Source of the DNA: Asterionella formosa
Lineage: Eukaryota
DNA length: 36,158 bases
Direction of reading: 5' to 3'
Assembly: GCA_002256025.1 (NCBI GenBank)
Contig: NKIB01015397.1
Location: 1 to 36,158, forward strand
The position numbers and the translations under genes are program-made. Below are positions 2,470-24,123 of this stretch, piece by piece. Within the stretch, counting starts at the first letter, position 1. Every line of letters starts with the position of its first letter. The notes under the pieces were generated by a model, which saw only the letters and a program-made list of their open reading frames with translations, did not search any database and was not told the DNA's origin.

Positions 2470-3999
2470 ATGGCTATAAGAGCACGAAAAGTTGATCAGC
2501 CTCGTAATGAGGAGAGAATTCGAGCATTAAAGCGAGGACGGAATAAGCCCGTTGACACCAATGCGGACGAACCCATTTCCGCGAGAACTGCTGTATGCGT
2601 CTTCCTCTTTGTTTGTCTAGTCTGTGGATTTTTGGATTATCGACGCGTCAAGTCAAGAGCTGTTGTGGATACAATGAGGAGCAGCCTTCGGACCGGTGGG
2701 ATGCTAGACAAACCAAAGCCTCACGAAGTTGTCGTGGCCATCAACTCTTTGCTGACACCCGAAGAAGATGTGGCTCTCGAAATGCATTCCGATGGCACTC
2801 GTTATCATTTAATTTTCAGCACGGATTGCTCCCCTTATCAACATTGGCAGTCCTACTTAGTCTATTTCACAGCCATGCGAGTAAAGCAGCCAGGCCATGT
2901 CACTCGAATTGCTTCCGGATGTTCCGCTGACGAAGAAAAGGCCATGAAACAATGGTTCAACACACACATTCAGGGGCTGTCGAATCGATTCCATTTACAT
3001 CTCACTCCATACTTTTCTGGAGTAAAGAATGATTCTGGAGAAACTGTGGGGAACTACAAGTTTTTCAACAAGCCCTTTGGTCTCAAGCATTGGATGGAAC
3101 ATGCTGAACACTTTTCCTTGTCCCAATCAGACGACATTGTTATTTTGATTGACCCTGACATGGCATTGTTGAGACCCATTACTGGGGACTTTTCTCAAAG
3201 CAAAGAGGTAGTCTTTGGAAAAGGGCGAAAAGGTCATGAATTGGGAACCAAAGTCGCTCATGGTCTACCTTTCGCTCAAGCATATGGGATGGGGACTCAG
3301 TGGGAGAAATTTGATTTGGACAAAATTGCAGGAGTAGATTCTCCAGCAAAGAAAGTGAACCAAAATGATGGCTTCTACTTTTTTCCTGCAGGGCCTCCTT
3401 ACTTGGCCACATCAAAAGATATGTATGCAATCGCCCAAAAATGGACCGAGTTTGTCCCTCGAGTGCATGCACAATATCCTCATCTCTTGGCGGAGATGTT
3501 TGCATTTTGTATTGCTGCTGCACACTTGGAGCTAAAACACCAGTTGATAGATTCTTTAATGATTTCGGAGAAAAACGCTGGAGGCGAAGGCTGGCCTTTG
3601 ATTGACCTGATCCCACCAGAAGAAATGTGTGTGTTCGCTGCAAATCTAGACCACTCAAAGTATGCCCTCCCTAATGTAGTCCACATGTGTCACGGATACG
3701 TTGTCGGTGATGAGTGGATCTTTGGAAAGCATAGAGTACCAACCGATATCTATGCCTGCGACAAGCCGCTCTTGGCAGTACCTCCTGCTGATCTCGCAAC
3801 AAGATTCACTTATCAGAAATTTCCGGATCAGAAGGACAAAGTTGACCTTAGCCCTATGTTGATAAATAGAGAGGCTTTCATGGTTTGCTCACTTCTTTCA
3901 GTGTTGAACGATGCTGCATCATACTACAAGACAAACGCTTGCCCAGTTGGCACAGCGAACCTGGAAAAATCACTGAAACTGGTCAATGTGCACAAATGA
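2470..3999 (+). CDS. Type II membrane glycosyltransferase, peptidyl-serine alpha-galactosyltransferase (SERGT1/GT96) or hydroxyproline O-arabinosyltransferase-like
   Basis: First ATG at 2470. A basic cytosolic tail precedes one TM helix (AVCVFLFVCLVCGFL). Family-like motifs: HLIFSTDCSPYQHWQ, KQPGHVTRIASGC, FNKPFGLKHWM, DxD motif (IDPDM), LLAEMFAFCIAAA. Confidence 0.75.
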   Translation: MAIRARKVDQPRNEERIRALKRGRNKPVDTNADEPISARTAVCVFLFVCLVCGFLDYRRVKSRAVVDTMRSSLRTGGMLDKPKPHEVVVAINSLLTPEEDVALEMHSDGTRYHLIFSTDCSPYQHWQSYLVYFTAMRVKQPGHVTRIASGCSADEEKAMKQWFNTHIQGLSNRFHLHLTPYFSGVKNDSGETVGNYKFFNKPFGLKHWMEHAEHFSLSQSDDIVILIDPDMALLRPITGDFSQSKEVVFGKGRKGHELGTKVAHGLPFAQAYGMGTQWEKFDLDKIAGVDSPAKKVNQNDGFYFFPAGPPYLATSKDMYAIAQKWTEFVPRVHAQYPHLLAEMFAFCIAAAHLELKHQLIDSLMISEKNAGGEGWPLIDLIPPEEMCVFAANLDHSKYALPNVVHMCHGYVVGDEWIFGKHRVPTDIYACDKPLLAVPPADLATRFTYQKFPDQKDKVDLSPMLINREAFMVCSLLSVLNDAASYYKTNACPVGTANLEKSLKLVNVHK

Positions 4000-4058: not shown

Positions 4059-5234
4059 TCACTGAGTTGCTGTGTCGTCGCTTTCTGCACATGGATCAGA
4101 TCCCCAATTCTGCAATAGGAGGTTGAAGTGATCACGATTCGCAACTGCCACATCCTCGCTAAGTAAGAACGCCTCTCGAATCCAGTTTGAGCTTTGTAGG
4201 CCTTGCGTGATGAGCAGGTCCCGTAGAGGCTTGAAGTTCGGCGAGCAAATATTGATAGTTTCTCCATAGGCTGCTTGATCAATAAAGTGATTGATGTTCT
4301 CGTGACCCATTGGTTTAAGTGGTTGCTTCAAGCCCAGAAAGGTCGACAATTCATTTCGAAAACCGCCTGCCCTGTTTTCGTCTGGATCATCCATTTGCTC
4401 GAGAGTGTACAAGAATATCTTGAAGTTGTTGGGCTGGACACCCATATGCGGACGACCAACAAGCTGGCTGAGATCTGTCGTTGACATATTTGTCTTTCCA
4501 AGTTGCATAAGGGATAGTTCAAAACGAGCAGAGTCCGTTGAAACCCCTCTCCAATCAGTAAGACCAACAAGGCTATCTATGGAAGGGATGGCTTCCTTCC
4601 AGTTCTTGTTATAGTGCTCTGTAATTCGATAATTGTAGTAACTTTGGAGGAAGAAAACAGGATGGCGCACTCCAATAATGACTTTTGCTTGTGGAGAATG
4701 CATGTGAAGGCGTTCGATGGAGTCGGTATTTTTGATTCCAGTTGGACACTTCATTCCACGCTTCATGTCGGGAGACTGGTTAAGTTCTAAAAGGGATTCC
4801 ATGTACATTCGCTGGACTGCCCTACTGTCAGAAATTTGAGGGCTCGTGAATGCACACTTTTCCTTTGAACCAACATCTGTTTCTTCGTGGTCTCTAAATG
4901 CATACACCAGTGTTGTCGTTCCACATTTCGGAAACCCTGCAATCACGAAATCCAAAGACATACTGGCATTTGTAACTCTCGTAGATGATGGTCGTGCAAA
5001 CCGGAGGGTGATGTTTGATCTTTTTCTAAGGGAAAATGAATGTTCTTCAGTGAGTGATCGTCTGGCATGAACCATTCCGGAATAGTTTGATTGAATGCAG
5101 GCATGGAAGTTTTCCATGTTTACGACGAGTAATGTTGAAAGAGCGATAAAGATGAACAATCGAAGGGTACAAAGGAACATCGACTGCTGGACTAATCGAC
5201 AAGGAGCTGAACTTTGTTTTCGGATGATTTTCAT
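4059..5234 (-). CDS. PAPS-dependent sulfotransferase, Golgi type II membrane, heparan-sulfate 3-O/N-sulfotransferase-like fold
   Basis: ATG at 5234 (MKIIRKQ) with an N-terminal TM anchor. 5'-PSB loop DFVIAGFPKCGTTTL and 3'-PB motif KVIIGVRHPVFFLQSYYNY. Confidence 0.85.
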   Translation of the reverse strand: MKIIRKQSSAPCRLVQQSMFLCTLRLFIFIALSTLLVVNMENFHACIQSNYSGMVHARRSLTEEHSFSLRKRSNITLRFARPSSTRVTNASMSLDFVIAGFPKCGTTTLVYAFRDHEETDVGSKEKCAFTSPQISDSRAVQRMYMESLLELNQSPDMKRGMKCPTGIKNTDSIERLHMHSPQAKVIIGVRHPVFFLQSYYNYRITEHYNKNWKEAIPSIDSLVGLTDWRGVSTDSARFELSLMQLGKTNMSTTDLSQLVGRPHMGVQPNNFKIFLYTLEQMDDPDENRAGGFRNELSTFLGLKQPLKPMGHENINHFIDQAAYGETINICSPNFKPLRDLLITQGLQSSNWIREAFLLSEDVAVANRDHFNLLLQNWGSDPCAESDDTATQ

Positions 5235-6169
5235 TATGGATTCGAAAGGCAAAGGTCGTCAGATGTGTGGTTTTATCGCAATTATTGGCGCTGGATGAAC
5301 TTTCGTTTTAATTTGTGAGCATAAGTGCTCCACCATTTTGGACTTGTGCATCAATGCATTAAAAAATATCAATTTCGAAATCAATGCAAGGCGTAACGGT
5401 TTTTTGGGCAAATCTTGATTCCATAAATGAATAGCAATGCACACTCAATGCGTGGTTTGAGATTATTCTGAGTTGATCAACAAGTTTCGAACGATGCATT
5501 GTTGCCGACACCACTTGACTTTACGCAACTTGAGCCTGTAGAGGCTTCGTTCGGCACATCACTTTTCGGATGACTACCGGTATACATGGAAGTATTGTTT
5601 GAGAAGATGCAAAGTTTTTTTAATTGGACTACCGGTAGTACCATTCATAAGCTCGTTCATGGCATACCGGTATCAGTCACAAATTTCGAAATCAGCCATT
5701 TATGATGTTACTATGATAAAGTGTNNNNNNNNNNNNNNNNNNNNNNNNNNNNNNNNNNNNNNNNNNNNNNNNNNNNNNNNNNNNNNNNNNNNNNNNNNNN
5801 NNNNNNNNNNNNNNNNNNNNNNNNNNNNNNNNNNNNNNNNNNNNNNNNNNNNNNNNNNNNNNNNNNNNNNNNNNNNNNNNNNNNNNNNNNNNNNNNNNNN
5901 NNNNNNNNNNNNNNNNNNNNNNNNNNNNNNNNNNNNNNNNNNNNNNNNNNNNNNNNNNNNNNNNNNNNNNNNNNNNNNNNNNNNNNNNNNNNNNNNNNNN
6001 NNNNNNNNNNNNNNNNNNNNNNNNNNNNNNNNNNNNNNNNNNNNNNNNNNNNNNNNNNNNNNNNNNNNNNNNNNNNNNNNNNNNNNNNNNNNNNNNNNNN
6101 NNNNNNNNNNNNNNNNNNNNNNNNNNNNNNNNNNNNNNNNNNNNNNNNNNNNNNNNNNNNNNNNNNNTA

Positions 6170-11990: not shown

Positions 11991-13084
11991 GATTGATTTT
12001 TATTGTAGTTCTAAATGAAGAAGAAAACAACGAGAGCCGAGGAGTCGTGAACAGTTTTCAATTGATTGCAACGCAATGGCATATATATGTGTGTGTGTGT
12101 AATGAAGTACGTTTAATGTTTTTTCAAATCTTGATGATACTAGAATTACATAGCAATGGACCGGTACACTGATGGCCGCCTGCGATGGCCATCGCTCACT
12201 TGTGCGTCTCGTGATGCATGAGCCAATGGCTAAATCCCCCAACGAACATGACACTGCCACTGGTATGATGCCGTACTTATTTAAAATGTACCGTAGTGTA
12301 CCAGATACCCTGGTACTGCCCATGCACGGTATTCACAAAGTGTGTACCTGGTACTGGTATATTGAAATTATTACTGATGTATGGCAGACGTCGAAGTCGT
12401 AATTCTTATGTGCGACAAAGCAAAAGTTCGCTCCGAAATCATGACGTCAGTGTCACCACACCACCTCACAAAGACATGATGTCGTCATCGTCTGCGGCCA
12501 TTTTGAAAACTAACAATCCGGGTACTCCCAGGTACCGGNNNNNNNNNNNNNNNNNNNNNNNNNNNNNNNNNNNNNNNNNNNNNNNNNNNNNNNNNNNNNN
12601 NNNNNNNNNNNNNNNNNNNNNNNNNNNNNNNNNNNNNNNNNNNNNNNNNNNNNNNNNNNNNNNNNNNNNNNNNNNNNNNNNNNNNNNNNNNNNNNNNNNN
12701 NNNNNNNNNNNNNNNNNNNNNNNNNNNNNNNNNNNNNNNNNNNNNNNNNNNNNNNNNNNNNNNNNNNNNNNNNNNNNNNNNNNNNNNNNNNNNNNNNNNN
12801 NNNNNNNNNNNNNNNNNNNNNNNNNNNNNNNNNNNNNNNNNNNNNNNNNNNNNNNNNNNNNNNNNNNNNNNNNNNNNNNNNNNNNNNNNNNNNNNNNNNN
12901 NNNNNNNNNNNNNNNNNNNNNNNNNNNNNNNNNNNNNNNNNNNNNNNNNNNNNNNNNNNNNNNNNNNNNNNNNNNNNNNNNNNNNNNNNNNNNNNNNNNN
13001 NNNNNNNNNNNNNNNNNNNNNNNNNNNNNNNNNNNNNNNNNNNNNNNNNNNNNNNNNNNNNNNNNNNNNNNNNNNNNNNNNNNN

Positions 13085-15408: not shown

Positions 15409-17389
15409 GATAAAGACGCGAGTGTATGTGATGTCTCAATGGCAGAGGCAAGGGACTGGATTCAAAGATAGCTTCACTCGTTGTTGTGGTGCTTTTCGTT
15501 CTTGTTCAAGGTGTGGCTGAGTGAAACGAGACGTTTGCTTATTTTTAAGTCACCACAGATTCGATTCTAATGGTAACAGGTCCTACATGCACATAAGCTA
15601 ATACGGAGTCGTACATAAAAAAATGATAGGCGGAGGAATGACCACAAAATGCCTTCGTATGTGTGGCTGAACGCTTCACGGGTACCGGTACTACCGCCCG
15701 GTATATCAGAAATGCCTACCGTACCGGTATGTAGGATGTGGACAAGCGACATCAAATAACATCAAATACAAATAATAGTACCGGTAGTGGCTAGACATTT
15801 TCCAAATATGTACTAAAATAAGGAGAAGCAAGAATGATCAGCCAGGAGTCATGTCATCCTATATATACCGTATTTGTAGGTTTCATTCATAGATAGTTGC
15901 TGTCTTGTTGCGTGGCTGAAAACTCCCTCCTCCGTCATCTGGATGCCGTAGGCGAAGATTCGACATTTGTCAGGCTTGTCAGACTGTGTCTGTTAGGCTG
16001 TTGATGTTGACAGGTGTCCGAAGACTAGATGAAGTCTGAGGAATGTCTAAATGGAATTCAAAATCAGTGGCTCGAAATAATGATTGATTTATAATTCTTG
16101 ATTTATCTGTTTACAATAGGCATATCATCTTTGTCATGATGTTGCCACTACTATCAGTACCGGCAAACACCATGTTCCAAGAACATGCATGCTTATATAT
16201 CGACACATAAAAACCATTCACAAGTAAAGTAAATTTTATCAGTTCAGTAAACAAACAGGATTACATGATGCTATGAATAGTAAAGATGTGTTCTGGAATG
16301 TAGACAAGGATGAGTATGTATATTCTAAATAGATGTGGCTCCCAGATAGACACTGCAGATTGGAATGGACAAAGTGGCTAGTTCCAACAGCAATGCAGCA
16401 ACAAAACTGGGAAGATGCCAAAAATAAGCATCTGATTACAAAAGGATCAAAGAAGCTCAGAGAGTTGAGGCAAAGGTTGGGGTAGTTGACACTCAGAATC
16501 ATTAATGGAATAAAAATTACACATCCCAACAAAGACACTTTGGAAATAATCCCAGAGTAGAAAAAATTTCAACACACCGAAACATCTCGACACAGCCAAC
16601 TCTGTTTAAGTTCGACTTTGAAATCGTCTGCAAATGAAAACCTATATATTCCTATGACACATCATAGGATTATGATCATCTGATCATTATTATTCGTTAT
16701 ATCATCTATTAACTTTGATAAATGCCCTTGTAATTTAAAAAGTAACCCTATCAACACTGTATATTTGATTATATTATGTATTGTTTCTATTAAGTTCCTT
16801 AATTTAAATTTCTTGGTAGGATAATGTACCAGCCAGCTGAAGCAATGTGGTTTGGTTCATCATCTTCTTCAGTCCTCACTCCGATTCTTGCAACAACGAC
16901 AAACAGCCATGTCGAGAGGAACGAGTGTTTGTGATAAAATCTTCATTTGTCATTCAAGTCAGCCATCAGATGTCCTCAATTAATCATCATCTACAGTGCA
17001 CGGAATGTTCGTATGCAATCTTTTAAGAGCTTGAAAAGAAATACAATGAAAAAGAAATGGCTCATCACACAAGACGAATATTTCCGGTCTATCAGCCACT
17101 GCTGGAGCATCGATCAGTGTTACAACCTCAATCATAGTAAACAAGCAACAGCAATTATAGAACAGCAAAATCTACTTATTTGTTACCTCTACAACGCCGA
17201 TTACTGGTACAGCTGCAAGAAAAAAAGGCTAGTCAAATATGATCACCCAAATTAATTATTTTGGTGGCTCAATATGATGAATTTGGCTACATACATAATT
17301 TAAGGGTATGATATCACATATTAAATGTGATACATCACATAATATATATGTTAAGAGTGAACTAAAATAGTTTTGACAACTTCCATAGT

Positions 17390-17602
17390 TATTTTAGAAA
17401 CCCACATAATTATTGGTTTGATCACATAATTATTCGATAAATGAAGTAAATTTTGTTTGAGAACACATGAATTTTGGTTTGACCCAAATAAATTCCAAAA
17501 AAGTAGCATAAGTTTTTAGAAAAGTAGCATAAATACGTCACTTTAGACATAAATTTGAAAAAGTGACGTAAACGGCGTCTTAGACGTACATTGTCTCTCT
17601 AA
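17390..17602. repeat. Degenerate ~20-21 bp tandem array with an 11-bp inverted repeat; possible DNA-transposon subterminal relic
   Basis: Recurrent units such as GGTTTGATCACATAATTATT, GGTTTGACCCAAATAAATT and AAAAGTAGCATAA (twice). TACGTCACTTT (17534-17544) pairs with AAAGTGACGTA (17560-17570). Confidence 0.45.
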
Positions 17603-19259
17603 CGAGAACATAATACATCTAGAATTGAAACACAGCATAGCAGGCAATACGCACAAAGAAGCAAGAGACTGTCTATGCATAGTAAAAGACCGCTACATCA
17701 GATTTACTTTGTCATCATACTAGTTCCTTGCCTTTGACAACAGGAGCATATTCTTTGATGATGTATCTGTAATGGTTCAATGGATGGCAGCAGTTGGGTT
17801 TAGACACAAAACTCGACAAAAGCACTACTTCGTAGATGTTCATGAAAGGCCAGACACTTTGGCCTGTCGACCACCAGCCAATCTATATTGCGAAAATGCA
17901 CATTTTTTAGATTCAAGTTTCAGTAGTAGTGCAATGTGAAATATTAGAAACCGGAATTCACGTTTTATCTAATCACAGCATTCATTTAACTAGCTAGTAT
18001 TGATTGAGAGGACGCAATAATAGAATGACAAACAAGCGGGGGCAAACACAGAGGAGCCTAATTTTTGTCCCAAATGATCCCAGACCCTCTTGGATGTCAC
18101 TTGCTACAGAAAATGTATAACAGCCGCCATTATCTGTTGACTGTTGCTGTATGGTGCCACTGACCAACACCGCCTCCAGAAATCTCAATGAGTTGCTTGT
18201 TTCTTGACTTGAATGCTCAAGGGATCAAAACCAGTGGAAAAAGCAACAGGAAACTAGCATCATCAAACTATGTACAAGCCTGAGACACCTGACATCAATA
18301 TAGCTACCTTGACTTCATCAATGAAGAAAGTATGATAAGCGGAGCATGTAAGAAAAAATCGGGGTTGAGGTGAGCCATTTTCTTGATGCCAACGTGCTTG
18401 GATGAACTTGCAGGTGAAGGCATTGAGTAACCTTGGCCTGTGCGGCCAAAGGATAAAGAAAGGTCTATGACAAGGGTGGTGAGATATTGTCTAGAAGCAA
18501 AAGTTATCATAGCTAAACACAGTCGAAAATTCGGATGGACAATATATGATGACATACCATGGCTGCTCTTGGCTGACAGTTGCCAAGTCGGTGTAAAAAC
18601 ACAACAAGGGTGCACAAAAGGCAGTCCCATTTTAATCGACTGGCTGATACATAGTTTGAGACTCAGCCACCATTCTGCAATAGGTTGGAATTCGATCATT
18701 GCTTTGTTTGAAGCACAATCAATTCGAATTCTGTCCAGTGAAACAGCCAATGAAAACAATTGTGGCGAAAAAGCGCAGAACAGATCAAGAGATTACAAAA
18801 GAAATTAAAATAACAGGGCATATATGATGCACTGCTCCTTGTGTAGACTAGCTATATTTGATCATTTCCATATTTCATACTAGTATACAGGTGCATGGAT
18901 GACTCCTCCCGCCCTTTCATTAGATATGCAGCCATGTTGCGATAATTCTACAAGACCTATAGGATTGGTATCTGGTGGTCATCATTTCCGCATCAAAATT
19001 TATTTTTAGGAATTCGGATAAAAAGATCTTAAAAATATGATCAAATGATCCTTAACACATGAGCATATTCAGTTTTCCGCTGCACTATTATGGTACTACC
19101 GCCCATGATAAAAGTAATATCCAGAAAGTATACAGTACTACCAGCAGCCAGGCCATATGATTTTTTCGAATGTATATGGTCAATATGTCTATATTCATAA
19201 ATGTATGATTTAGACCATTTGAAAAATTGGTGATTACTCCCGTTTATTAAGGGGCTTAA

Positions 19260-19701
19260 TTAAATCAGCCACTGACTTGTAGGTACAAAAATTGACACAA
19301 AACAAACTGAAAAAATTCAACAGGTTGTGGAAAACTATGAACTCATCATGCATTGTATATATTTGAATTATGTATAATCAAAATTGTTGTTAGTATACAC
19401 AGGATGTTCAATATAATGAGCGTGTTTAAAACTATGCAAATGTTCAACTATATATACATTTTAACTTACAAATCTTTTTATTAAATCAGCCACTGACTTG
19501 TAGGTACAAGCATTGACACAAAACACACTGAAAAAATTCAACAGGTCGTGGAAAACTATGAACTCATCATTCATTGTATATATTTGAATTATGTATAATC
19601 AAAATTGTTTTTAGTATACACAGGATTTGCAATATAATGAGCGTGTTCAAAACTATGCAAATGTTCAACTATCTATACTTTTAAACTTACAAATCTTTTT
19701 A
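19260..19701. repeat. Head-to-tail tandem duplication of a 221-bp AT-rich unit
   Basis: Copy 1 is 19260-19480 and copy 2 is 19481-19701. Both start TTAAATCAGCCACTGACTTGTAGGTACAA. About 12 substitutions by hand alignment (~95% identity). Confidence 0.97.
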
Positions 19702-19738
19702 TGAATGTATTCATGGCTGAAACATTTGAAATCATGTT

Positions 19739-19953
19739 TTCATGTTCCTTGTCATGCATTCACTTTGCTCCTGAAATGAAGGATCATCACACATAATGAC
19801 GCGGATAACGAAAGTGATAACAATACAACACAATGATACTTGTGACAGGCTTAGAAGGAGTGACTACGGAGAAGGGCGGAATTAATTGATGGTAAGTCAA
19901 GAGCAAATGCCCTTCATGTTCCTTGTCATGCATACACTTCCTGAAATGAAGGA
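19739..19953. repeat. Short direct repeat of about 42-45 bp, two copies
   Basis: TTCATGTTCCTTGTCATGCAT...CCTGAAATGAAGGA occurs at ~19739-19783 and ~19913-19953. Confidence 0.85.
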
Positions 19954-20387
19954 GCTTATTGTACGATACCCTTGATCCAATATGCATGATGGTTTTTATT
20001 TGCAGACGATGGGAAGAGAGCATGGGAAACGTATCCCCCCCCCAGGAAGTTGCCCTGTGATTTGATGAATCATCAAAGTCTTTGTATATCATGTGAAGCA
20101 GAGATTAATGTGTAGGCAGACAAATTAGCTACCAATTTGTTGAAGGTACCAGGCCGGTCTGGTAAAACATATTTTTATATAAGAAAAGATTAACAAGCTA
20201 ATCTCGATTACTTGACCTTCCAACAGGAATTCGTTGCAGTATGTACCTGTTGCCGCCATGGCCGGTAGTTTTACAGCCTGACGATCAAATCAATGCACTC
20301 CCACCTTTTCGTCTTACCTGGTACTGTAACAGGGTACCAGGTAACAGCTACCTTTACAAATGAGCGATCATGTGGATCATGTGCTCA

Positions 20388-20810
20388 CACCACAGGAGAG
20401 TGACGTGGATTTCTAAGTCCACTTTCACGTTGTTCTGACAGCGACATGACAGAATCCTGACGTAGGTGCTCTATTCAATTACCGGCTAACAACTTCTGGT
20501 ACCTGGTACTCAGTACCAGTTGCTATTTTAAACCTGATTTGCATAACCACACAAGACAGGGGAGTGACGTGGATATCAAAATCCATTTCACGTAGTTCTG
20601 ACAGAGACCTGACGTAGGCACCCGGTTCACTATTCAATCAAACAAGTGGTGGGACTGTGATTGAAGTAACTTTAACATACATGAAAGAAAAAGAAACATA
20701 GGAAGACCTAACAATTCCTGGTACTGGTACCAGGTAACGGGCGACGGTACTGAAACGGCGAAATGTGTCGTCCCAGTAATGATTCTTTCAGTTCCTGCTG
20801 CTTGACGTCA
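20388..20810 (+). promoter_or_regulatory. Duplicated promoter module with clustered TGACGT (bZIP/aureochrome-type) boxes upstream of the repeat-protein gene
   Basis: TGACGT at 20401, 20458, 20565, 20610 and 20803 (the last is palindromic TGACGTCA). A ~90-bp module is repeated at ~20388-20480 and ~20547-20640. Confidence 0.7.
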
Positions 20811-20919
20811 CCACGTCGGACGAATTGGTTTTTTGGTACCGTAATAAATAAGATGTTTCTCCACATGATTTGCTCACAAACTAACATCAAGCAAACATTA
20901 AAACGAACAAAATACAACA

Positions 20920-21483
20920 ATGAAAACTTCCATCGTCCTTGTCTTTCTCCTCCCTATGGCCACGTCTGCCTTGCAGGTTGGTAAATATCTGAATGGTCTG
21001 CCCGGCAAGACCTTCACCGTTCCAATTTTCACAGCTCCTGCACCAACACCTGTCGCGACTTCAGGTAGTGCATCTGGCTTCGGCGCAGGCTACCTCAGTT
21101 CCTTGCCAGGCAAGACCTTCACTACTCCGGTTGTCGCAACAACCCCTGCTCCTCCCAGTGGAGCTGGCTTTGGTACCAACTATCTTAGTTCTTTGCCTGG
21201 AAAGATTCATTCTACTCCTAATATTGCTGTCAAGCCAGCACCAACTGTTGTTGCTGTTTCTGGCTTTGGTTCTTCGTACCTCAGCTCCCTGCCAGGAAAG
21301 ACCTTCAGTTCTCCTGTCGTGACGGGTACACCAACTCCTTCTGCTGCATCCCCTGCTGCTGGATCTGCCTTCGGTGCTAGCTATCTCAGTTCGTTACCAG
21401 GAAAGACCCATACTACTCCTGTGTTTGCCAAGGCTCCTGCTCCTTCTCGCGGCGCATTCGGTGGTTACCTCAGTGGACTTTAA
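20920..21483 (+). CDS. Signal-peptide low-complexity repeat protein with six (FG)xxYLSSLPGK-type motifs; possibly plastid-targeted
   Basis: Intronless 187-aa ORF after an A/C-rich leader (AAAATACAACA-ATG). Signal peptide MKTSIVLVFLLPMATSA|LQ. Repeats are conserved as protein while codons vary synonymously, which indicates coding selection. Confidence 0.85.
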   Translation: MKTSIVLVFLLPMATSALQVGKYLNGLPGKTFTVPIFTAPAPTPVATSGSASGFGAGYLSSLPGKTFTTPVVATTPAPPSGAGFGTNYLSSLPGKIHSTPNIAVKPAPTVVAVSGFGSSYLSSLPGKTFSSPVVTGTPTPSAASPAAGSAFGASYLSSLPGKTHTTPVFAKAPAPSRGAFGGYLSGL

Positions 21484-23006
21484 ATGTGTCCAGTAAGATT
21501 GAAGTAGTTCATTTGTACAGCTAAAAGTTGAGTGAAGATTCTATTTTTTGTAACTTTCGCTTTTATACCTAGATTGAAGTAACAATGTCGTACTGTACTG
21601 GTGAAAGATCGCTTTCTTGGCAGTCTTTAGGCTTCTTTAGAGATAATCATTGAATTTAATTAGTTCTTGACCGTGTTGTCAACATTACTATCCTTGCCGC
21701 GAAAATTTGAAGTGCATATTTGTCGTCTCAATGAACAACGATGTATGGCTATGTTACAACAAATCTGGAGTAGACGCGGGATCGCAATTTAAATTAGGAG
21801 GAAGAAGTGCTTTTTCACTATGCAAATGGAGTTCACAATGTCAGTGTGGATTAATTGAGATGAAATGACAACAATGAGAATTTGAATATTACCAAGAATT
21901 CTCGCCATGAGACTAGCAAAAGTCACAGAGGTTCCACAACCCATGAATCTGGGCCTTGTAGGCGACACTAAGAAATACCTCCAACACAGCTCTCGATGAT
22001 TCCTATCTAATATTTGTTCACATCAAATTTCCAATATTAGGGATGATGCGTGCTATGTGCATCTTCGTCAAATAGGTGGCTAATATGAGATAGAACCTTT
22101 ACCATTGCAGCCCAATTGATCATGATGAAAAAACCAAGGATGGTGATCACCAATGAGTTGTTGATGACAGTAAGTTCATCCAATGTTCCAGATATAACCT
22201 CAAAACATGTTCATCTATAACTTTCTCCTAAATGAATTAAGACAAAACACTATGAAAACTCACATAAACGTACAGTCAAACACATATCATTGCATCATCA
22301 TGCGTCATCCTCTGGTCATGTTTGTAGTGGTGCAGCACATGGTTCCAGCATTGTTACGATATTCTGTCAAAGGTAAGTGTTGAATTGGGACAGAGAAATA
22401 TCTGATTGGCTGATCACGCTTGTGGCATAGATGAAAAAGACTCCCTGGTACTTCGTACCTGGTAAAGTCTAGTGTCTCATAACTAGACCAGATGTGCTGG
22501 TATGTTCATAGTCTAGATATATGATGTAGTATTGCAAAAAGTGAGTGCAATATGATACCTGGTACTCCGAGTAACACTGCAGTAGACCAGTAGGAGTGGT
22601 TGGATGATTAAAAATGACCCAATTCTTTGACAAACCATTTTAGCTCTATTGTTATTAGCCCATCACGGCAAAAATGATCCATGCAGCGGCGTTTTACTTG
22701 ATCAACTGCTTCCTTCATGCTTTTAGTTACTCCATCATCCATTGCTTCGTTCATCCCAAGTTTCGTGACTTGTGCTCCCATGGGACCATCAATTTGATCT
22801 CCTAGTGATGATGTTGATAGAATTCTTCCAAAACAATGGAACTATCCCACAGTGCTGACAAAGCCCTCTCATTTCAGGGCGACGAGAAATTTGCCTAGTA
22901 CCGTCAGCGAGGCAGCAGATTTGCATATACATATTATGTTGCATTTCAAAAAAGCCACAATATATACATATATACACGCAGCGTTCGTTTCCCACACAGT
23001 CCCCCA

Positions 23007-23426: not shown

Positions 23427-24123
23427 TTTGTATATGATGACTTATCTACAGAGTCACTAGTGGATTACTGATGACAGAGAAGGCGAATGGTTACCGGTGT
23501 TGAAGGATAAGAAAGGGAAGCAATCGTCATGAATGAGGATCATCAGAAATTATCTGCTCCATCCAGTGCAGTGGTGACAGTGGTACCAGANNNNNNNNNN
23601 NNNNNNNNNNNNNNNNNNNNNNNNNNNNNNNNNNNNNNNNNNNNNNNNNNNNNNNNNNNNNNNNNNNNNNNNNNNNNNNNNNNNNNNNNNNNNNNNNNNN
23701 NNNNNNNNNNNNNNNNNNNNNNNNNNNNNNNNNNNNNNNNNNNNNNNNNNNNNNNNNNNNNNNNNNNNNNNNNNNNNNNNNNNNNNNNNNNNNNNNNNNN
23801 NNNNNNNNNNNNNNNNNNNNNNNNNNNNNNNNNNNNNNNNNNNNNNNNNNNNNNNNNNNNNNNNNNNNNNNNNNNNNNNNNNNNNNNNNNNNNNNNNNNN
23901 NNNNNNNNNNNNNNNNNNNNNNNNNNNNNNNNNNNNNNNNNNNNNNNNNNNNNNNNNNNNNNNNNNNNNNTACCGGTACCAGGTATCATATGCCAGTACG
24001 TAATCTACCAACTCCATTGGCGGTATCCGATACCGGTATTTTGATTCACAATTTCTTCGCTCTCCTGCCTGCCTGCCCAGCCCTGCCCATCCTCACATTG
24101 CCCATTTGCCACTCGGCGCTGCC

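Follow-up and report, generated by a model that had tools for sequence, protein, structure and literature searches.

Contig NKIB01015397.1 of the Asterionella formosa assembly GCA_002256025.1 (36,158 nt, forward strand; hereafter the window, meaning this whole stretch of DNA) carries at 20920-21483 an open reading frame (ORF) for a small repeat protein. The question raised by this locus is what purpose a chain of six Tyr-Leu motifs, set between low-complexity spacers, could serve. An earlier note, made from the sequence alone, had proposed a multivalent linker of the plastid or pyrenoid. We find that the ORF is a real gene and that its product (P0001, here called the window protein) shares the core of its repeated motif, which we term the sticker, with DPC2, a pyrenoid protein of Thalassiosira pseudonana (T. 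pseudonana). The reading that we favour, with belief and doubt about evenly balanced, is that the protein is targeted to the plastid and acts in the pyrenoid matrix as a multivalent scaffold of stickers and spacers, related to DPC2 through its motif and with Rubisco as the most probable partner. The data described below directly support the existence of the gene, its representation in RNA libraries, the anatomy of the repeats, the conservation of the stickers, the motif relation to DPC2, the predicted disorder and the basic charge.

The ORF is uninterrupted and intronless, and it is represented by contigs assembled from four RNA libraries belonging to four studies, one of them poly-A selected. 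These contigs follow the genome colinearly on 20892-21536 and contain no joints; none has an intron spliced out, and over the N-terminal region they agree with the genome. At the contig end at 20892 there is sequence that we take to be Illumina adapter. On either side, 20300-20848 and 21581-21885 are uncovered in the four RNA contig sets (X11 gives 3x cover from 21886), although contigs cannot prove absence. Contig depths (summed word depth up to ~6e5, X13) cannot rank expression and were not used as evidence.

Among the RNA contigs are variants with 90-99% identity to the window, and in the contigs of related variants the divergence begins immediately 3' of the stop codon (21484). When the 39 listed variant sites were translated, 24 proved synonymous and 15 non-synonymous. 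Within the 70 residues of the six motifs there are six synonymous variants and a single non-synonymous one, which falls on a variable x position, while the spacers making up the rest of the protein hold 18 synonymous and 14 non-synonymous variants. Selection thus falls on the stickers, which are conserved more strongly than the spacers. At the DNA level the 81-nt repeat units (repeat family D1) are 60-75% identical; Tandem Repeats Finder did not detect the 30-aa units as DNA tandem repeats, reporting only a 15-nt x1.9 microrepeat; and the same conserved residues are encoded by different synonymous codons across the repeats. The repeats therefore exist at the protein level only and are old at the DNA level.

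Taken together, the colinear RNA contigs, the bias of the variants towards synonymous change and the retention of the motif despite codon divergence establish 20920-21483 as a real gene. A chance ORF or non-functional repeat DNA might have been suspected from the low-complexity composition and from an overlapping ORF of 109 aa in the +2 frame. However, this explanation is already contradicted by the RNA contigs of four studies that cover the ORF, by the variant bias and the conservation of the motif at the protein level, and by homologues at 46-73% identity in other assemblies; we regard its probability as negligible.

The window protein has 187 residues and a mature form of about 16.5 kDa. 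It contains six copies of Y-L-x-x-L, with the Tyr at residues 23, 58, 88, 120, 155 and 183 and hence spacings of 35, 30, 32, 35 and 28 aa, just as the earlier note had described (six YLSSLPGK-type motifs about 30 aa apart). The four internal full stickers read [GA]-F-G-x-x-Y-L-S-S-L-P-G-K, and the spacers between stickers are Pro/Thr/Ala/Ser sequences of about 20 residues each. Ser, Pro, Ala, Gly and Thr account for 118 of the 187 residues (full composition S26 P24 A23 G23 T22 L16 V14 F11 K9 Y6 I4 N3 M2 H2 Q1 R1), and Asp, Glu, Trp and Cys are each absent from all 187. The composition count thus bears out the statement that the chain is free of acidic residues; at a typical Asp+Glu content of 11.5%, the chance of 170 acid-free residues is about 1e-9. 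The isoelectric point (pI) is 10.17 and the net charge about +9.7 at pH 7.

Using the predicted local distance difference test (pLDDT) of AlphaFold2 as a proxy for disorder, the window protein is predicted to be intrinsically disordered and without a folded domain, in line with what the earlier note had read from the sequence. From a 5-sequence alignment the mean pLDDT was 40.5 and the predicted template modelling score 0.11, with 175 of 187 residues below 50 and no segment reaching 70; the only helices were short and of low confidence (residues 17-24 and 86-89, and 59-61 in the DSSP string). A scan of all six frames of the 36,158 nt found the sticker motif nowhere else in the window. The best score in the ESM Atlas was 0.78, to arthropod GYR/YLP clusters and below the useful range, and sequence searches of the PDB with P0024, P0019 (both introduced below) and the sub-family profile gave nothing meaningful (best E 0.012, heliorhodopsin).

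Searching 5.8e9 clustered proteins yielded four matches among 1241 candidates. A profile of those sequences, run against 1.84e9 representatives, gave 13 matches at E<=1e-3, and a metagenome scan added two loci (L001 and L002). The search recovered a rare sub-family and also, by way of P0010, the link to DPC2, so that by sequence comparison the window protein is not an orphan but a member of a basic sub-family; both it and that sub-family appear rare in public data. Two of the profile matches were set aside as chance, being other repeat proteins: P0014 (974 aa, with NQISGFATESSLSSLNGKV-type repeats) and P0016 (with Cys-containing CFYLDGQPGKRD repeats).

The close sub-family comprises P0001-P0005, P0008, L001 and L002. 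The consensus of 28 motifs from P0001-P0005 is G-x-G-S-Y-L-[D17/S7/N4]-[G/S]-L-P-G-K-T-F-[T/S]-T-P, and sticker spacings are mostly 28-41 aa. Copy number varies from four in P0002 and five to seven in P0003-P0005 (six in the window protein) to nine in L001 and 18 in L002 (632 aa). All members are basic (pI 9.6-10.2), and every one ends in F-G-x-Y-[LI]-x-G-L. The position after Y-L is Asp in 17 of the 18 motifs of P0003-P0005 and Ser or Asn in the window protein, P0002, L001 and L002. The lack of acidic residues is a trait of the window protein's lineage only and not of the family: in sister proteins the motif itself contains Asp (YLDGL), and bona fide DPC2 is a strongly acidic protein. L001 is the closest long relative (64% identity, nine stickers, a full presequence with Phe at +1); it has one in-frame TGA at 440-442 amid an otherwise intact frame, for which a sequencing error, a nonsense allele or a pseudogene are possible explanations.

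The sticker also occurs on proteins of other architecture. With the 632-aa L002 protein as query, a homology search returned a single weak match, P0024, and in P0011, P0013, P0024 and P0035 one to many stickers stand N-terminal to a conserved C-terminal helical/hydrophobic domain. In the C-terminal ~200 aa of these four, a hydrophobic segment rich in Gly and Ala (ATVEFTAGV.GGVAGFA.AGP) precedes long helices. Neither Pfam nor the PDB held a match for this domain, and the AlphaFold2 model of the longer relatives (alignment A2) was of low confidence (mean pLDDT 32.7); the domain may be a membrane or assembly anchor. The clusters of P0011 and P0024 both have members on contigs of 23345, 22567 and 9998 nt, so these paralogues are probably neighbours on the same contigs.

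The relation to DPC2 (Pfam PF25195) runs through intermediates. Three sub-family members, P0003, P0004 and P0005, matched PF25195 with E 3e-11, 8e-12 and 3e-10 (41-46 bits), each of them over two or three stretches. The sub-family profile found P0010 at E 9e-9, which itself scored 66.6 bits on PF25195, and all seven of the relatives of P0010 match the family, two of them, P0019 with 224.2 bits and P0021 with 84.8 bits, above its cut-off; the source name of another, P0023, is the pennate diatom Cylindrotheca closterium. Across eight DPC2-like proteins, 84 motif instances follow G-[AP]-G-[MI]-x-S-Y-L-D-[AS]-[LV]-P. When hhalign was used to align the sub-family to P0019, a bona fide DPC2, 35 columns matched with a probability of 93.7% and E 1.8e-7. 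The window protein has the same kind of array, with six copies of G-x-G-x-x-Y-L-[SN]-[SG]-L-P in which Ser or Asn replaces the Asp. At the level of sequence, then, it shares the sticker core with DPC2, without being DPC2 by the Pfam criterion.

This relation matters because of where DPC2 resides. In T. pseudonana it localises to the pyrenoid only, mainly to the matrix (Nam et al., bioRxiv 10.1101/2023.10.26.564148, later Cell 2024), and the part of the preprint consulted describes it as a fairly abundant Rubisco interactor and a hub of the interaction network for which no function was known (bioRxiv 10.1101/2023.10.26.564148). In the literature searched, Nam et al. was the only work to connect DPC2 with the pyrenoid. 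The sticker motif had no prior description there, its strings matching only unrelated papers, and the available portion of the Shimakawa et al. preprint says nothing of the motif. Some DPC2-type proteins carry cathepsin-propeptide-inhibitor (I29) domains N-terminal to the sticker array (in the N-terminal regions of P0021, P0017 and P0023); P0021 has two copies, with a score of 36 bits that is above the cut-off, and P0017 scores 19 bits, below it.

Plastid targeting is suggested by the N-termini. In the window protein, MKTSIVLVFLLPMATSA/LQVGKYLNGLPGKTFTVP... (the slash marks the presumed cleavage), a hydrophobic core at residues 5-14 and small residues at -3 and -1 point to cleavage at TSA/LQ. 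ASAFind allows F, W, Y or L at +1, does not treat transit-peptide length as critical, and expects hydroxylated residues, few acids and a net positive charge (PMC4329603, as excerpted); the sequence directly after TSA/L is hydroxylated, acid-poor and net positive, and the N-terminus is consistent with these stated rules, although the window protein lacks the separate transit-like stretch seen in its relatives. Their signal peptides are followed by F or L at +1 (VSA/FS, SLA/FQ, ASA/LQ, VSA/LQ), and past the cleavage site comes a basic, acid-free stretch of ~20 residues with a first Y-L-[DN]-S-[LI]-S motif at its end. All eight DPC2-like proteins likewise have F or L directly after the hydrophobic start.

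The upstream region offers a further lead. The 540 bp before the ATG hold six TGACG[TC] sites, the palindrome TGACGTCA included, which is the densest cluster in the 36 kb and a number that 0 of 200 shuffles reached. Two copies of an upstream unit (Table 1) contribute two TGACGT each, at 20401 and 20458 and at 20565 and 20610. TGACGT/C is the CO2/cAMP element, bound by bZIP11, of the low-CO2-induced genes PtCA1 and PtBST1 (excerpt of PMC11142338). We treat the cluster as a lead for regulation of the CO2-concentrating-mechanism type, not as proof of it.

Table 1. Features of the repeat gene and its upstream region (positions are those of the window)
Feature	Position	Strand	Basis and remarks
Two copies of ~95-nt upstream unit	20386-20480, 20550-20640	+	~160 bp apart; repeat families D3, D4, D5, D13
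Palindrome TGACGTCA (CRE-like, i.e. cAMP-response-element-like; CCRE-type, i.e. CO2/cAMP-responsive-type element)	20803..20810	.	110-117 nt upstream of ATG
5' untranslated region	20892..20919	+	as far as RNA-library contigs reach; in-frame TAA 20899-20901; no upstream ATG
Coding sequence	20920..21483	+	ATG start, 187 codons + TAA, no intron; ORF and colinear RNA contigs
Signal-peptide-like N-terminus MKTSIVLVFLLPMATSA	20920..20970	+	read from sequence; Leu at +1 after presumed cleavage
Sticker 1 GKYLNGLPGK (aa 21-30)	20980..21009	+	motif listing
Sticker 2 GFGAGYLSSLPGK (aa 53-65)	21076..21114	+	motif listing
Sticker 3 GFGTNYLSSLPGK (aa 83-95)	21166..21204	+	motif listing
Sticker 4 GFGSSYLSSLPGK (aa 115-127)	21262..21300	+	motif listing
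Sticker 5 AFGASYLSSLPGK (aa 150-162)	21367..21405	+	motif listing
Sticker 6 AFGGYLSGL-COOH (aa 179-187), C-terminus	21454..21480	+	invariant F180 G181 Y183 G186 L187 in alignment
3' untranslated region	21484..21536	+	extent of one RNA-library contig

The window protein also has the general properties by which pyrenoid linkers are sought. According to the excerpts available, the FLIPPer filter retains proteins that are mostly disordered and whose repeated elements recur at intervals of 20-120 residues (PMC11570498), and its application to Ulva used at least three repeats, disorder and a pI above 8 (bioRxiv 10.64898/2026.07.16.738900). Six repeats at 28-35 aa, a pI of 10.17 and a mean pLDDT of 40.5 place the window protein within both filters in these respects; of the repeating structured, helical elements that are also expected of such linkers, the AlphaFold2 model offers only the short helices of low confidence noted above. 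We propose that this nuclear gene of a freshwater diatom-type alga yields a small, disordered, strongly basic product whose signal peptide would lead it into the secretory route and probably onward into the complex plastid. There, all stickers would bind one kind of site on a multimeric partner in the pyrenoid, of which Rubisco (L8S8) is the likeliest, so that one chain could bridge several partner particles and help to condense or organise the pyrenoid matrix, much as EPYC1, CsLinker, SUPA1 and PYCO1 act with unrelated motifs. In the relatives with a C-terminal domain, the sticker would serve as an address tag for the same compartment. The location in plastid and pyrenoid, the identity of the partner and the condensation are what we infer from the relationships set out above.

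Several observations weigh against this proposal. The window protein itself scores only 12.4 bits against PF25195 (E 0.21; cut-off 70 bits), and the cut-off is passed by zero members of the sub-family. P0019 has a pI of 4.05 and a net charge of -25 compared with a pI of 10.17 for the window protein, and DPC2-like stickers are spaced mostly 18-26 aa apart, with 18-20 aa in bona fide DPC2, compared with 28-35 aa; given these contrasts in charge and spacing, the two proteins may play different, even opposite, roles. Since the link to DPC2 is a 12-residue motif in low-complexity sequence, the resemblance may also be one of convergence. The window protein and P0002 lack a transit-like stretch of ~35 residues and the first YLDSLS motif that all other sub-family members have (alignment columns 33-71). 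This N-terminal deletion is real, as the RNA-library contigs are colinear there, and together with the presence of Leu, not Phe, at +1 it makes plastid import appear less certain for the window protein than for its relatives. P0012 (1289 aa, coiled-coil rich) has the motif but no signal-peptide-like start. The sticker shows no confident helix in the AlphaFold2 model, and the consulted part of Nam et al. reports linker-type repeat spacing of ~60 aa in none of their pyrenoid proteins and neither a homologue nor a functional analogue of EPYC1 or PYCO1 (bioRxiv 10.1101/2023.10.26.564148). As for the upstream cluster, four of the six sites stem from one duplicated unit, and TGACGT is a generic bZIP site.

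On balance, the proposal of a multivalent plastid or pyrenoid linker is supported in part: the DPC2 motif core, the sub-threshold matches of the relatives to PF25195 and the linker-like properties speak for it, while the window protein's own score below the cut-off and its lost transit-like stretch do not. The novelty claimed for the protein is likewise reduced, in that the motif is the core of an existing Pfam family, but the failure to reach the family's cut-off and the differences in charge and spacing leave it distinct. The family gives no ground for the further suggestion that the partner is acidic, since sister proteins have Asp within the motif and bona fide DPC2 is itself acidic (pI 4.05).

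If the protein does reside in the plastid, its stickers might bind a partner other than Rubisco, or it might be retained in the periplastidial space. Candidate partners could be acidic DPC2, with which it would form a basic-acidic pair, the lattice of the PyShell, the thylakoid that penetrates the pyrenoid, or the C-terminal domain found in the longer relatives. The DPC2-family evidence fits this alternative as well as it fits a Rubisco scaffold, and the charge contrast (sub-family pI about 10, bona fide DPC2 about 4), the occurrence of the sticker on proteins with a conserved C-terminal domain and the loss of the transit-like stretch also speak for it. Yet T. pseudonana DPC2 was identified through its interaction with Rubisco (bioRxiv 10.1101/2023.10.26.564148), the basic disordered pyrenoid repeat proteins characterised in the sources consulted all bind Rubisco, and the ASAFind rule allows stromal import with Leu at +1 (PMC4329603). 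We consider a plastid protein of this other kind unlikely, but a serious contender. Secretion is less probable still: the product would then be a cell-surface Pro/Thr/Ser-rich glycoprotein of the hydroxyproline type, a mucilage or an adhesive, with repeats acting as modules for glycosylation or Tyr cross-linking. What keeps this reading alive is mainly the loss of the ~35 residues in the window protein and P0002, which leaves a signal-peptide-like start with no separate transit stretch, unlike in the relatives, and with Leu rather than Phe at +1; the 24 Pro and 48 Ser/Thr among 187 residues also fit, and genes of the hydroxyproline O-arabinosyltransferase (HPAT) family and a sulfotransferase in the same window imply that the organism has the chemistry. 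Those genes, however, lie 16-18 kb away with several unrelated genes between, and the nearest relatives have kept a full bipartite presequence in which +1 is F or L and the transit-like stretch is basic and free of acidic residues. Hydroxyproline-rich and arabinogalactan proteins are marked by glycomodules, either contiguous Ser-Pro(n) or clustered Ala-Pro/Ser-Pro/Thr-Pro, and often by a hydrophobic tail of the glycosylphosphatidylinositol (GPI) type. In the window protein the AP, TP and SP dipeptides are scattered, Ser-Pro-Pro blocks are lacking, and the chain ends in ...RGAFGGYLSGL, without the hydrophobic character of a GPI-type tail; moreover, DPC2, which has the same motif core, has been imaged in the pyrenoid. 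Were the protein secreted after all, the finding would shrink to an ordinary repeat protein.

The earlier note had also raised the possibility of a precursor of repeated small peptides, cut after Lys and with the Gly giving a C-terminal amide (...YLSSLP-NH2). Five P-G-K copies at regular intervals behind a signal peptide do recall such precursors, in whose amidated neuropeptide-type form a Gly and then dibasic cleavage sites flank each peptide. In the window protein there is no KK, KR, RK or RR (K and R stand at 2, 22, 30, 65, 95, 105, 127, 162, 172 and 177), conservation extends past G-K into T-F-[TS]-T-P, and the final copy is without G-K in every member of the sub-family. The plastid-type presequences of the relatives and the entire absence of G-K from DPC2-type arrays argue the same way, and the case for a peptide precursor is weak enough for us to judge it highly improbable.

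The genomic surroundings are unremarkable. Neighbours within the window include a zinc-type dehydrogenase, the HPAT-family protein, the sulfotransferase, a PAP2_C protein, PhyH, an Ulp1 protease, threonine synthase, a methyltransferase and a Sld2-like protein, all ordinary eukaryotic nuclear genes. The HPAT-family domain (2470-3996, +; E 1.2e-8) adjoins the sulfotransferase domain (4062-5234, -; E 2e-5), a pair whose chemistry is that of modified secreted peptides and glycoproteins; their link to the repeat gene is probably coincidental. Over the ~5.4 kb upstream (15500-20900) there is no stop-to-stop ORF longer than 162 codons, and the repeat gene stands isolated between gene-poor stretches. 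Four runs of N (380-546 nt) lie at 1593-2078, 5725-6167, 12539-13084 and 23591-23970; long ORFs across them are artefacts of N read as X. An Rfam scan of the window found no RNA family.

Returning to the scaffold of the pyrenoid matrix that we favour, its interest lies in the part that diatom pyrenoids play in about a fifth of global CO2 fixation (Nam et al., bioRxiv 10.1101/2023.10.26.564148, in the text available). The packing of Rubisco in these pyrenoids has so far been explained only for Phaeodactylum. One short motif is common to three architectures, namely the DPC2 hub, a basic sub-family with 4-18 copies and the proteins with a C-terminal domain, and this shared motif makes Rubisco condensation in non-Phaeodactylum diatoms open to direct experiment. 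It also provides a compact linker candidate for form ID Rubisco that could be used in engineering. A bolder extension, which we think speculative and on the unlikely side though well worth stating, is that the core G-x-G-Φ-x-S-Y-L-[D/S]-x-Φ-P serves diatoms in general as a pyrenoid address and as the sticker that binds Rubisco, and so is the long-sought counterpart of the Chlamydomonas motif. Its users would be the acidic DPC2, tethers with the C-terminal domain and the basic sub-family, the last being the missing Rubisco linker outside Phaeodactylum; the change from Asp to Ser in every internal copy of the window protein (YLSSL) would allow affinity to be controlled by phosphorylation.

In summary, the closest known system is DPC2 of T. 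pseudonana and its relatives. Like the window protein, DPC2 has many copies of G-x-G-Φ-x-(S)-Y-L-(D/S)-x-Φ-P set between low-complexity spacers of Ala, Ser, Pro and Thr, and in both F or L comes after a signal-peptide start; significant but sub-threshold profile links connect the two through intermediates. Unlike DPC2, the window protein is basic, its stickers are more widely spaced, Ser or Asn takes the place of the motif Asp, the sticker is extended by G-K-T-F-T-T-P and the chain is short (187 aa versus 365-967 aa).

PYCO1 of Phaeodactylum tricornutum resembles the window protein as a disordered, multivalent diatom protein with aromatic residues in its stickers. As described in the excerpts, these are KWSPRGGS, which binds Rubisco and in which the Trp is essential, and GTGYNP (PMC10288592, PMC13655443); the second also has the G-x-G-Y of the window motif. 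There is no sequence relation between the two proteins, and a Trp-dependent sticker contrasts with a chain that has no Trp and contains neither string, so the earlier note was right to separate its motif from KWSP. In the same excerpted sources, BLAST gave no PYCO1 homologues in other sequenced algal species (PMC10288592), and PYCO1 is absent from centric diatoms according to Nam et al. (bioRxiv 10.1101/2023.10.26.564148).

EPYC1 of Chlamydomonas, CsLinker of Chlorella and SUPA1 of Ulva, as far as the consulted texts describe them, differ from the window protein in motif and lineage, being unrelated proteins of green plastids with form IB Rubisco; their stickers become helical upon binding and stand ~60 aa apart, whereas those of the window protein show no confident helix and stand about 32 aa apart. 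The likeness is one of design: five or six stickers, disordered spacers and a basic pI. A further parallel is that the Rubisco-binding motif of Chlamydomonas is reused both on a linker and on proteins with other domains, just as the sticker of the window protein recurs on its relatives with a C-terminal domain.

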